Shown: one piece after another, positions 37,024 through 63,084 of the stretch
Layout of the letters: every line of letters starts with the position of its first letter
How positions within the stretch are numbered: the first letter of the stretch is position 1
Source: a virus
Length of the DNA: 64,000 nt
Reading direction: 5' to 3' (one strand)
Virus record (IMG/VR): IMGVR_UViG_3300037246_002669
Location: 1 to 64,000 of that record
Notes under the pieces: generated by a model
Told to the model about the DNA's origin: nothing
Seen by the model: only the letters and a program-made list of their open reading frames with translations
Databases searched by the model: none
Translations under genes and position numbers: made by a program

Positions 37024-38001
37024 TTATTGCAAATAACTCGCAACTGTTGCCCCAAGTCCTTCCGTAAATCCTACCTGCGGGCGATATTTGAGTTGATCTT
37101 TGGCCTTATAGATATCAGCCTTGGAATGTTTGATATCCCCGATTCTATCCGATGTATGTTCGAATTTCCGGTCAACTCCAGTTATGCTGGAAATGGCAGA
37201 CACAAGGTCATTCAATGTATGAGATTCTCCCATAGCAATATTATAGGATTCTCCACTGGGTAACCCTGCTATTGTCAGCATAGCTTTGAGATTTGCGTGA
37301 ACTACATTGTCCACATAGGTAAAATCGCGGGACTGTTTTCCGTCTCCATGGATCTTAAACTTGTAATCCCCATCACGGCACGCCCGGATGATTTTGGGAA
37401 TCACGGCAGCGTACTCGGACTGGTCCGACTGTCGGGGACCAAACACATTGAAGTAACGCAAACACACTGTGGACAGTCCATGCATCTTCCAGTACATGTG
37501 CATGTACTCTTCAGATATGCACTTCTGCGCGGCATAGGGTGTTTTGGGGTTGAATGGCAGGGTTTCCATTTTGAATTCACAGTCCACATCTCCATACACC
37601 GAAGAGGACGAAGAGAACACAACTCTCTGCACTCCTGCAGACTTACAAGCATGCAATAGGGCAAGTGTACTTGTGGAGTTCGCCTTGTGGCTGTCCATGG
37701 GTTCCACAATGGACCTGGGAACCGAACCCAATGCAGCTACATGAAATACATAGCGACATCCGGACACTGCCAGTGCCGTGGCAACTTCATCTTCCACGTT
37801 GCCTATAATCACTCGGGGAGAGGAAACATCAAGTCTTTTTCCGTCCTCGCCCATCATTGCAGCCTCGACGTTCTCCATACTTCCGGTGGATAAATTGTCC
37901 AGTATGACAACTTCATATCCATACTTCAGCAAATGGTGCACCAAATGAGAGCCAATGAACCCGGCCCCTCCGGTAACGAGAACTTTTATATTATCACTCA
38001 T
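37024..38001 (-). CDS. NAD-dependent epimerase, WbpP-like UDP-GlcNAc 4-epimerase
   Basis: VTGGAGFIGS, HVAALGSVPRSI, SSSSVYGD, PYAAQK, LRYFNVFGPRQ, YAAVIP, GDG.QSRDFTYV.NVV.AN. Confidence 0.9.
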   Translation of the reverse strand: MSDNIKVLVTGGAGFIGSHLVHHLLKYGYEVVILDNLSTGSMENVEAAMMGEDGKRLDVSSPRVIIGNVEDEVATALAVSGCRYVFHVAALGSVPRSIVEPMDSHKANSTSTLALLHACKSAGVQRVVFSSSSSVYGDVDCEFKMETLPFNPKTPYAAQKCISEEYMHMYWKMHGLSTVCLRYFNVFGPRQSDQSEYAAVIPKIIRACRDGDYKFKIHGDGKQSRDFTYVDNVVHANLKAMLTIAGLPSGESYNIAMGESHTLNDLVSAISSITGVDRKFEHTSDRIGDIKHSKADIYKAKDQLKYRPQVGFTEGLGATVASYLQ

Positions 38002-38003
38002 CT

Positions 38004-38933
38004 TTATCCTCTTTTCCATGTATCGGCCCACTCTCGAATGTCGTAAATGGCCTGTTTCTTGATATACTCGCGGTGTTCTCCACATTTACGAGTTACTTCC
38101 TCCAATACGGAACGGTGATGTCGGTTACTTCCACGCATACTGTCCGCGTGCTTTGCCGCCAAGGACTTTCCACCAAAGAGGTAAGTGGCGATAAGGCGAT
38201 TTCTGTTAAAATCATCGGCATTCCACGAGTATCCCCTTTTCTCCCCGTGGTGGTGCAATGGAAGAGAATTAACGATCCACTTCCGCATCCCGAGAACTGC
38301 CATGGTAAAGTTAATGAAGTTTTCCCCACCTCCATAGATGCCAAACTCCGGGTGCCATCCACCTAACTTCTCATAAATGGAACGGTGCATCATCATACCG
38401 CAGGTACTCATGCAGGGCACTTCTGTAACGGAATTGCCGGGATCTCTGAAACTGCAGAAAGTATAATGGAAGACTCCCTCATTCCTTTTATCCACGAGAG
38501 AATACTGCAGCCGCTTCTCCTCCATGATGTGATAAGTTAAGGGCAAATGGAAGGTGCCATTCATGTAATACTTTTTGTCACTCAGGTACGCATGGAACAT
38601 GTTCCGCAAGACTCCGCGTGGGACATAGCAATGAGCATCACAAAACCAGAATACATCACCGGTTGCATGTTGTATGGCAAAGTTCTTTGCTTGCCAGTGA
38701 GACAACTTGTCGGTATACCGGAGGTTGATGATGTTCTTGTGTTGCCTTTTTATCTCCTCCATGTAAGGCCAGCACCGATCAGACTCCCTGCCGATATTGG
38801 GACAGTGAGAATTATCAACTGCAATCAACTCCCACTCAAAAGGAGCCTCCCTCAGTTCCTCGATTATACTACGCAAGGTGAACGGAAGAACTGGCCACTC
38901 GTTAGCGTAAGGCACTATCACTGATAGTTTCAA
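38004..38933 (-). CDS. GT-A glycosyltransferase resembling polypeptide GalNAc-transferases (GT27/GT2)
   Basis: SVIVPYANEW..L..T..SI, ELIAVDN, FCDAHC (DxH), LGGW..F.IYGGGEN, distal His. Confidence 0.8.
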   Translation of the reverse strand: MKLSVIVPYANEWPVLPFTLRSIIEELREAPFEWELIAVDNSHCPNIGRESDRCWPYMEEIKRQHKNIINLRYTDKLSHWQAKNFAIQHATGDVFWFCDAHCYVPRGVLRNMFHAYLSDKKYYMNGTFHLPLTYHIMEEKRLQYSLVDKRNEGVFHYTFCSFRDPGNSVTEVPCMSTCGMMMHRSIYEKLGGWHPEFGIYGGGENFINFTMAVLGMRKWIVNSLPLHHHGEKRGYSWNADDFNRNRLIATYLFGGKSLAAKHADSMRGSNRHHRSVLEEVTRKCGEHREYIKKQAIYDIREWADTWKRG

Positions 38934-39339
38934 AATTTGCTCCTCCTTTTCTTAATCCTCTCAACTGCAGCAGGGCAGCTTTGAATGCGGGAAATCCCAT
39001 TATAAGGGAGGGAGTTCCCAGTGCAGCAATATCTTCAATGCGAAGTGATGCAAAATGCACTACAGTTGTCTGAATACCCCTTATCTGATAAGGAGCCATG
39101 TACTTTCCTTTGTGATACTTTAGGAAACCCTTACTTTTCTTGTAGTGCCCGTAATAGTCAATTGCAAATGAAATTTCATGGGGATGTACTTCGCCAATTT
39201 TCTTCCCGAATGCAGTTACGGCAAGTTTTCCCTGGCGCACGGATAGCATCTCCACTTTGCCAAGTTTCCCAGTAGCAATACCGTCAATTATCATGTTTTC
39301 CAGTTTCTGCAGATACTCCTCGAATGACATGGTATTCAT
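38902..39339 (-). CDS. Hypothetical protein in the glycosyltransferase cluster
   Basis: AAGGAG RBS before MNTMSF. Confidence 0.6.
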   Translation of the reverse strand: MNTMSFEEYLQKLENMIIDGIATGKLGKVEMLSVRQGKLAVTAFGKKIGEVHPHEISFAIDYYGHYKKSKGFLKYHKGKYMAPYQIRGIQTTVVHFASLRIEDIAALGTPSLIMGFPAFKAALLQLRGLRKGGANFETISDSALR

Positions 39340-39353
39340 TAGATTTACTCCTT

Positions 39354-61807: not shown

Positions 61808-61810
61808 TGT

Positions 61811-62089
61811 TTAGATCCCCAGTGCATTTTGAGTAGGTCGTCCGCTTACATTCTGCCCTACTTCCGCCAGCGCATTCTCTTCCGGCCCGTAGGCTTCCTT
61901 CGGCAGGTTCACCGGAGCCGGTTCAGGGATCTCAGCCTTGAAGACAGGTTGCCCGTTTTCTCGTAAACGCAACAAAGCCTTTGCTTCTTCGTCTGTAACT
62001 TCCTGAGAATGACCCCCAGTGAAGTTGATCTTCCGGGCGGGAAGCATCATGATACGCTTGTCGTTTGTCAGCAGTGTAACTTTCGGCAT
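61811..62089 (-). CDS. Small capsid-adjacent protein
   Basis: 92 aa immediately after the capsid gene. Confidence 0.65.
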   Translation of the reverse strand: MPKVTLLTNDKRIMMLPARKINFTGGHSQEVTDEEAKALLRLRENGQPVFKAEIPEPAPVNLPKEAYGPEENALAEVGQNVSGRPTQNALGI

Positions 62090-62121
62090 AACTCTATTCC
62101 CCCTACAATTGGAACTTTAAC

Positions 62122-63084
62122 TTACGTAGTCGTGGTGGTGGCACCGAGGGGGTTCAGCCCGATACACTTGACCACAGCATCGACTTCCTCGTACTTCACG
62201 TCGAGACGCATGGTAAGAACGACGATGAGAACACGGGCACGGATGTCACGGTCGGTTTCCATGGAGATCTTTCTCTGTACACCCATGATCAGGTTCTTCG
62301 GGTGGGTAAAAAGAAAACTGTTATCGGGCATGAGCGCCACATCCCGCAGGGGAATGCCGAAGGGAGAGTTGCCCTGCCAGTCGGACTTGACATTTTTGTC
62401 ACCGAGGGTACTGAGCCTATCGCCCAGGTAATCCGCGTACTCCAGTTCCGTTGCCGGGGAGGAGAAGAAGGACATCTTTTTTCTGTTGCGAAGATATTTG
62501 TTCGGCATCGCATGAATGCCTTCTTTAAAGACCGCCCTGGAGATAGCCACGGGGGAAGCGGAATAATCCACCACATGACTTGTGGCCTGTTTGAGCATAC
62601 CGTCCAGAAGGGCAAGGTAATCATCGAGGGAGTCGGTATCACCGAGGAGAAGGAGTTCTTCGAGATCCAGAGCGGCACGCTCCGCGATCAGGGACATGAT
62701 GGTATCTTCGATGTTACCTCGTTCGATGTTGTCTTCCAGAACATCATAAGGAATGTGAACTTCGGCGATAACTTCCTTGGTAGTTAGTTCCACCTTATCG
62801 GTGGTGGGAGCGGAGCGGTCACCGGAAGCGAGGGCAGTGCCTGAAACCGGGGCCTTCTTCAAAATCCTCTGTCCGAAGCCGATCTTGTTGATCTGCATCT
62901 GGGGAGAATTCATGGGAACGGTGCGAATCTGGTTGATGAGCGTGGGCTGATCAATCAGCATCCTGAGAAAGGTGTTGGTTTGGGCGGGGTTAAGGTAACC
63001 GCCATTGGATACGAGCTGACTTACCGCCAAATCCGCTTTCTCAACTGCGGAACGGGCGTTGACGATGGTAAGGTTGGTAGACAT
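62122..63084 (-). CDS. Major capsid protein (HK97 fold, XkdG-like) ending in ATTTTT
   Basis: GGYLNP.Q...F, IGFG.RIL, LEDNIE, A.DLE.L...GD, DG.LKQ, THPKNL..G..R.I, R.D...EE.DAVV. Confidence 0.95.
   Translation of the reverse strand: MSTNLTIVNARSAVEKADLAVSQLVSNGGYLNPAQTNTFLRMLIDQPTLINQIRTVPMNSPQMQINKIGFGQRILKKAPVSGTALASGDRSAPTTDKVELTTKEVIAEVHIPYDVLEDNIERGNIEDTIMSLIAERAALDLEELLLLGDTDSLDDYLALLDGMLKQATSHVVDYSASPVAISRAVFKEGIHAMPNKYLRNRKKMSFFSSPATELEYADYLGDRLSTLGDKNVKSDWQGNSPFGIPLRDVALMPDNSFLFTHPKNLIMGVQRKISMETDRDIRARVLIVVLTMRLDVKYEEVDAVVKCIGLNPLGATTTTT

Follow-up and report, generated by a model that had tools for sequence, protein, structure and literature searches.

Why should a phage furnish several of its virion proteins with runs of threonine (Thr), and what do the glycosyltransferases (GTs) encoded next to its structural genes act on? 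Both questions are raised by positions 37,024 to 63,084 of the viral record IMGVR_UViG_3300037246_002669. The window analysed here (64,000 nucleotides) is the first 64 kb of this 94,912-bp viral contig, which was recovered from a marine sediment metagenome and is rated 96% complete. Genes lie on the minus strand throughout: head and tail genes (63–45 kb) are followed by fibre-like genes and two small membrane proteins (45–41.6 kb), then by an enzyme block (41.5–37.0 kb), and finally by the DNA polymerase and replication genes. An earlier note on this DNA had proposed that the enzyme block glycosylates poly-Thr tracts carried by virion proteins. Our analysis points the same way: the virion proteins of this phage are likely O-glycosylated in the host cytoplasm by a system that the phage itself encodes, with the poly-Thr tracts as portable acceptor tags. 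The virion is probably sugar-coated, since the key enzyme and the tags co-occur across many unrelated phages.

Threonine tracts on virion proteins and the GT27-like enzyme

A six-frame scan of the complete record found Thr runs of at least four residues in exactly six frames, all of them the virion-block genes listed in Table 1. Together the six carriers hold 43 runs and 241 Thr; with a background of 6.2% Thr in 27,033 residues, runs of five would be expected by chance ~0.02 times. The proposal that six virion proteins bear such tracts was therefore borne out in every detail, and so was its counterpart, since across the whole genome no replication protein has a Thr run of four or more. One protein of the replication region (window 12167–13189) has a repeated N-terminal TSATGTKTKT and is Thr-rich, yet it too lacks a run of this length. 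The spacers between runs are most often VAP (19 cases), then LPP, VGP, ATP and IPG, and proline (Pro) is usually found three residues beyond the end of a run. The underlying DNA consists of 24- or 27-nt tandem repeats, some copies of which are 100% identical, indicating recent expansion.

The tags recur in relatives. Among the 120 closest capsid homologues (61–89% identity), ~105 terminate in at least three Thr, placed after a conserved GL.P. motif; that the tail is kept while the length of the run varies argues for selection on the tail. Thr runs also terminate the tail tubes of records G049, G081 and G085, and the adaptor orthologue of G049 likewise has a Ser/Thr tract at its C-terminus. The LamG protein carries its runs N-terminally and in an extended central tract. 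The 60821 protein, which gave no family match in the PHROG search, is proposed to be a mucin-like virion protein, and G049 has a comparable small Thr-rich frame at the same position. The 60821 frame is in frame with the adaptor gene and begins after the adaptor TAG stop and four further codons (window 61207–61222). Read-through of this TAG was considered and rejected as the main explanation of the frame; it is unlikely because the frame has its own AGGAG ribosome-binding site and because its G049 counterpart overlaps the adaptor gene in another reading frame. The 42522 protein had no family match in Pfam or PHROG searches.

The enzyme on which the proposal turns is the 38004 protein, a putative initiating protein O-glycosyltransferase that would transfer the first sugar to Thr. 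When a profile of seven orthologues was compared with solved structures, two polypeptide N-acetylgalactosaminyltransferases (ppGalNAc-Ts, family GT27) came out in the lead, T10 (E 3.5e-9) and T9 (E 1.1e-8), with T7, T12, T4, T1 and T2 among the further top structures and alignments of up to 275 residues. A Foldseek search with the AlphaFold2 model (predicted local distance difference test score, pLDDT, 82) returned ppGalNAc-Ts at all of ranks 1–36, with E values of 1e-13 to 2e-11 and query template-modelling (TM) scores of 0.59–0.72. D99-A-H101 (within FCDAHC) and H228 are invariant in the seven orthologues; in the solved enzymes their counterparts lie in FLDSHC and, for H228, at the His of CSHVGH, and serve as manganese ligands. 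In addition, the YGGGEN sequence at residues 200–205, part of an IYGGGENF stretch that is invariant in the orthologues at Y200, G201–203 and E204, aligns to IWGGE of GalNAc-T10 and PGANT9, the Gal/GalNAc-T motif. The description of the protein as ppGalNAc-T-like is thus upheld by profile, fold and motifs alike. No ricin-type lectin domain is present, the protein ending at residue 309 with GT2-type domains only in Pfam, and neither a membrane anchor nor a hydrophobic segment was found (maximum 19-residue hydropathy 0.95). Lacking a membrane segment, the enzyme would therefore encounter virion proteins in the cytoplasm.

The GT27-like family comprises 958 clusters at E 1e-10 or better, and the nearest Atlas clusters are 90–100% viral. 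A tblastn search of 50,697 deposited phage genomes with the 38004 protein (E 1e-3 or better) gave a single weak hit at 21.6% identity, and none in actinobacteriophages. The hit lies in the Acidobacteria phage Tunturi_4 (Tunturiibacter phage, PP885687.1, L303 1567–2565). The Tunturi_4 glycosyltransferase has a FLDNHC motif, and its gene is flanked by those for terminase and portal; Thr tails are missing from the capsid, adaptor and tube of this phage, and its portal C-terminus is rich in Ser, Thr and Pro.

Distribution of tags and transferase genes

We assessed the link between tags and enzymes within the capsid family of this phage. The capsid shares ~50% identity with capsids of siphophages of ~80–97 kb that have Vibrio and Stenotrophomonas as hosts. 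Related capsid loci were not recovered with a single-protein query, and a capsid alignment was used as the query instead. Among eight distinct Thr-tailed phages, all eight have an orthologue of the GT4-like gene (40142) and seven have the GT27-like gene; neither gene occurs in any of the 15 other relatives, 7 of which are at least 90% complete. Records G046 and G050 were not counted separately because their capsid sequences are identical to those of G047 and G049. Record G057 carries most weight: with a capsid 69% identical that groups within the tailed clade, and with synteny running from terminase through to DNA polymerase, it is devoid of poly-Thr frames and of GT2 and GT4 genes. Two further records inside the tailed clade, G055 and G056 (loci L141 and L145), have capsids ending in GLTATGTTTY and encode a 655-residue GT2-containing protein. 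The GT27-like/GT4-like cassette and tracts of six Thr (Thr6) are both absent from them, and they may use a different or reduced system.

Altogether 67 viral loci with a GT27-like gene were found. A GT4-like orthologue lies upstream on the same strand, at a distance of 2–9 kb, in 55 of these, and in 7/9 Thr-tailed relatives. Judged by gene content, the conserved core of the predicted system is the pair of GT27-like and GT4-like genes, and the epimerase and GT9-like genes are accessories: an epimerase-like gene was detected in 7/67 loci, and a gene resembling 39354 in 11/67, always directly after the GT4-like gene and absent in five close relatives. The cassette is laid out as the GT4-like gene, a variable block and the GT27-like gene. 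Extra transferases are encoded in the variable block, as are hexapeptide acetyltransferases, methyltransferases, a sulfotransferase-like protein and a radical SAM protein; sugar-nucleotide genes (dehydratases, reductases and dehydrogenases) also occur there, and the arrangement is reminiscent of a glycan-diversifying island.

Apart from the tailed relatives, 26 further GT27-like records were available, of which 25 have another capsid family. A Thr6-coding pattern is present in 30 of 33 cassette-bearing records, including 15/15 of those at least 90% complete, and never on the non-coding strand; among cassette-less relatives it was seen in 2/15, as single hits. With the phage's own capsid family excluded, the pattern occurs in 23/25 records compared with 2/15 controls (Fisher p 8e-7, in a test that takes no account of relatedness). 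In G081 and G085, too, it is the tail tube (phrog_807) and head proteins that are C-terminally tagged. The question, set beforehand, of whether Thr tails are equally common in relatives without the transferases is answered in the negative by these counts and by G057, which is without both.

The enzyme block, a proposed pathway and its competitors

Coordinates and assignments of the six tract carriers and the five enzyme-block genes are collected in Table 1.

Table 1. Tract-bearing virion genes and enzyme-block genes in the window
Feature	Window position	Strand	Evidence and remarks
Major capsid protein, HK97 type	62122–63084	minus	phrog_1623 E 1e-104; PF05065; C-terminus GATTTTT; proposed acceptor
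Ad1 head-tail adaptor	61220–61807	minus	phrog_477 E 2e-12; C-terminus TTTTTVAQSTTTTT; proposed acceptor
Small protein	60821–61207	minus	36-residue basic N-terminus, then 11 Thr runs (62 Thr), mostly with VAP spacers
Tail tube protein	58855–59463	minus	phrog_807 E 2e-26; C-terminus ATTTTTATPTTTTTATPTTTTTT, three Thr runs; proposed acceptor
LamG/ConA-like fibre or baseplate protein	42944–44284	minus	PF13385 E 1.4e-15; baseplate/virion PHROGs; 19 Thr runs, 106 Thr
141-residue protein	42522–42947	minus	7 Thr runs in C-terminal 60 residues; translationally coupled to LamG gene
GT4-like GT-B glycosyltransferase	40142–41467	minus	PF00534 E 6e-8; conserved second cassette member
GT9-like (heptosyltransferase-like) protein	39354–40112	minus	252 residues, short; PF01075 E 4e-6; accessory
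Conserved small protein	38902–39339	minus	likely start MNTMSF; adjoins GT27-like gene in 25/67 loci
GT27-like (polypeptide GalNAc-transferase-like) GT-A enzyme	38004–38933	minus	309 residues; PF00535 E 2e-16
WbgU/WbpP-like UDP-HexNAc 4-epimerase	37024–38085	minus	PF01370 E 1.6e-63; start probably near 38019 or 38001; accessory

The best solved structures for the 37024 protein are WbgU (E 3.8e-66), chains 6wjb/6wj9, which carry only the label NAD-dependent epimerase/dehydratase family protein, and WbpP (E 7.5e-59), so that its earlier designation as WbpP-like stands. GGAGFIGS (Rossmann) and YAAQK (YxxxK) motifs are present; the NCBIfam scores lie below the equivalog cut-offs. We propose that it would supply UDP-N-acetylgalactosamine (UDP-GalNAc). 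The GT4-like, GT9-like and GT-A calls made for the transferases agree with family matches to PF00534, PF01075 (weakly) and PF00535, respectively. The 39354 protein gave partial matches only (PF01075, 55 residues at 26.7 bits; NCBIfam heptosyltransferase I/III, E 5e-8 and ~32 bits against cut-offs of 170–185), and the best PDB match in a single-sequence search had an E value of 0.39. The AlphaFold2 model of 40142 (pLDDT 85) has BshA and MshA as its nearest folds; sequence-based structure searches were uninformative with the single sequence and, with a profile, gave no more than generic GT4 matches. No GtfA-type match or DUF1975 region was found in 40142 by Pfam, profile or fold comparisons. The 38902 protein has no family, fold or Atlas match, and its standing as an obligate partner of the GT27-like enzyme or as a member of the system is doubtful because G057 keeps it without the cassette. 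Outside the block, a 518-residue protein (window 9400–10956) matches PF00534 faintly (14.8 bits), as do frames of comparable size in relatives with and without Thr tags (G049, G052, G060, G064); it probably has no part in the glycosylation system.

From these assignments a pathway can be proposed. The acceptors would be the C-termini of the capsid, adaptor and tail tube together with the long arrays in the three other carriers, most tracts having Pro-containing spacers as in TTTTT-VAP. The epimerase 37024 would convert UDP-N-acetylglucosamine (UDP-GlcNAc) to the UDP-GalNAc donor, and the soluble GT27-like enzyme 38004 would place the first sugar onto Thr, probably an N-acetylhexosamine (HexNAc) and in this phage probably GalNAc. 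The glycan could then be lengthened by the conserved GT4-like 40142 and the accessory GT9-like 39354. The earlier suggestion of a complete pathway holds for the gene set of this phage and fails for the family as a whole, in which the epimerase and the GT9-like gene are not conserved. A broader and more specific version of the proposal can be offered only tentatively: lectin-less cytoplasmic relatives of GT27, with a GT4 partner, may glycosylate a portable poly-Thr tag in true mucin-type fashion (HexNAc-O-Thr); the cassette of two genes would move between unrelated lineages, and each recipient would evolve tags on exposed virion proteins.

Several points weigh against glycosylation of the tags by this cassette. 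The whole case is built from sequence and comparative genomics for a phage with an uncultured host; these establish the tags, the families and folds of the enzymes and the joint occurrence of tags and cassette across phages, and it is from these that we infer the glycan, and with it the glycosylation of the tags, the initiating enzyme, the sugar used and the purpose of the coat. The resemblance of 38004 to GT27 is remote (15–18% identity), a single-sequence PDB search reaching E 0.065 only. GalNAc is the presumed sugar, donor and acceptor specificity being unreadable from the sequence, and the epimerase that would provide it has no orthologue in close relatives. Within the capsid tree there are only 2–3 independent contrasts, all in the expected direction, with which a sign test cannot reach significance; the neglect of relatedness in the Fisher test belongs here as well. 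Three GT27-like records, G052 (in which shorter runs are present), G073 and G093, are without a Thr6 tract. Finally, the exact TTTTTVAPTTTTT unit matched more than 118 viral contigs, many with several C-terminally tagged frames, and the 45 longest of them are without either cassette gene; they include a complete poly-Thr phage, G043, that has no PF00535 or PF00534 gene. The tags are therefore independent of this particular cassette.

Different phages combine the tags with different transferase families. This suggests convergence on a single acceptor design, and on the comparative evidence poly-Thr tags appear to be a general one that various transferase families serve. Transferases as such are no predictor of tags, as seen in G061, which has four GT2 genes and no tags. 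Very large proteins (674–1167 residues) with a GT1-group domain are often encoded by poly-Thr phages that lack the cassette; these were found in G003, G008, G009, G013, G020, G021, G026, G029 and G042 and are candidate alternative glycosylation enzymes.

The occurrence of the same repeat unit in 45 cassette-less phages, one of them a complete genome without GT2 or GT4 genes, is what would be expected if the Thr tracts were unglycosylated, or glycosylated by the host, and served as hydrophilic linkers or bristles while the cassette acted on another target. The tracts of the LamG protein, which sit between domains, are indeed linker-like. Tails that terminate a protein, on the other hand, link nothing, and tags and cassette are gained and lost jointly. 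Moreover, of the poly-Thr records with a completeness of at least 90%, the one analysed here among them, 11 of 12 have some GT2 or GT4 gene, compared with 1/7 complete untailed relatives, and we regard the linker explanation as unlikely. A somewhat better case, though still a poor one, can be made for a different division of labour, in which initiation on the Thr tags falls to the GT4-like enzyme, in the manner of GtfA on serine-rich repeat adhesins, and extension is the only task of the GT27-like enzyme. It is a GT4-type enzyme that starts the glycosylation of Ser/Thr-rich bacterial adhesins. The GT4-like gene is as tightly conserved with the tags as the GT27-like gene, and BshA and MshA, the nearest folds of 40142, are retaining, UDP-GlcNAc-using enzymes. 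Against this, the GT27-like enzyme matches the only solved family that places sugar directly on Thr in Pro-rich tracts, and the features of GtfA looked for in 40142 were not seen.

Two further explanations dispense with the tags altogether. An epimerase, a GT2, a GT4 and a heptosyltransferase-like gene are typical contents of a lipopolysaccharide (LPS) or O-antigen cluster, and the PHROG labels of the GT2 and GT4 genes read 'moron / host takeover'; the block might thus modify the host surface (LPS or capsule), for example for superinfection exclusion, its association with Thr tags being a coincidence. We consider this very unlikely, because none of the five block proteins has a membrane segment by hydropathy, family searches found no flippase, polymerase or lipid-carrier transferase in the block, the GT27-like enzyme resembles peptide and not lipid-linked transferases, and the association with Thr tags persists across unrelated phages. 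Phage-encoded transferases often glycosylate DNA (PMC12619734), which would evade restriction. For the present block this function is scarcely credible: the genome is without a thymidylate-synthase-like hydroxymethylase, the replication genes examined showed no base-modification enzymes, the fold of 38004 is that of a peptide transferase, and the link with Thr tags would be left unexplained. Glycosylation of the poly-Thr tags on the phage's own virion proteins is the explanation that we prefer.

Neighbouring genes and relation to known systems

Two other proteins of the window may be noted. A 1061-residue protein (window 4629–7814) matches an intein splicing domain (PF14890, E 1.4e-7, below the cut-off); insertion of an intein in this phage would fit, because the orthologue in G049 is only 679 residues long and 56% identical. 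At window positions 45358–49140 lies a probable tail fibre, a repetitive, Cys-rich protein of 1260 residues whose PKD-like match is faint and which has no Thr runs.

If the tags are glycosylated, virion glycosylation would be widespread in uncultured environmental phages (at least 958 protein clusters of the GT27-like family) and no peculiarity of mycobacteriophages, and the adsorption, aggregation, stability and recognition of phages would all be affected by a glycan coat. Should the broader version of the proposal hold, phages would possess a prokaryotic-virus branch of a family regarded as eukaryotic and, in the cassette, a compact means of making mucin-like glycoproteins that can be transferred to other bacteria. 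The 38004 enzyme also raises a testable question on the origin of GT27. Being soluble, 309 residues long and related to the mucin initiators, it could, together with a short encoded tag, become a practical tool for making mucin-type glycoproteins in bacteria.

As related in PMC12619734 and PMC13313380, published proof of phage virion glycosylation is confined to mycobacteriophages, with Che8, Corndog and Myrna as the examples given (Freeman et al. 2023, Cell Host Microbe 31:1216). In the literature searched we found no precedent for GT27-like enzymes or poly-threonine tags in phages. The system proposed here shares with that of the mycobacteriophages phage-encoded transferases proposed to glycosylate capsid and tail-tube subunits at their C-termini and, in some of the cassettes, accompanying methyltransferases. 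It differs in the enzyme family, 38004 being without an actinobacteriophage match, in its acceptors, which are explicit poly-Thr/Pro repeats with long mucin-like arrays in three proteins, and in its carriers, which are uncultured phages of marine sediment.

In the serine-rich repeat adhesins of Gram-positive bacteria, long Ser/Thr-rich repeats receive their glycans in the cytoplasm from a soluble GT4-type enzyme (GtfA/GtfB), and a variable set of transferases then extends them. Here the proposed acceptors are virion proteins and not exported adhesins, a GT27-like enzyme is present, and a GtfA/GtfB-type domain was not detected by Pfam or by fold comparison of 40142. As for the sugar supply, 37024 matches WbgU and WbpP over its full length and shares their Rossmann and YxxxK motifs; unlike them it is phage-encoded, and it is not conserved among cassette-bearing relatives.

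The closest parallel to 38004 itself is found in the eukaryotic GT27 enzymes, the initiators of mucin-type O-glycosylation, with which it shares the GT-A fold, the DxH and (W/Y)GGEN motifs and a distal His. GT27 enzymes favour Pro at position +3, and the likely acceptors of 38004 are Thr runs with Pro three residues beyond the last Thr. Unlike its eukaryotic counterparts, 38004 is without a lectin domain, a membrane anchor or a secretory pathway; it comes from a phage, and its site of action would be the bacterial cytoplasm.

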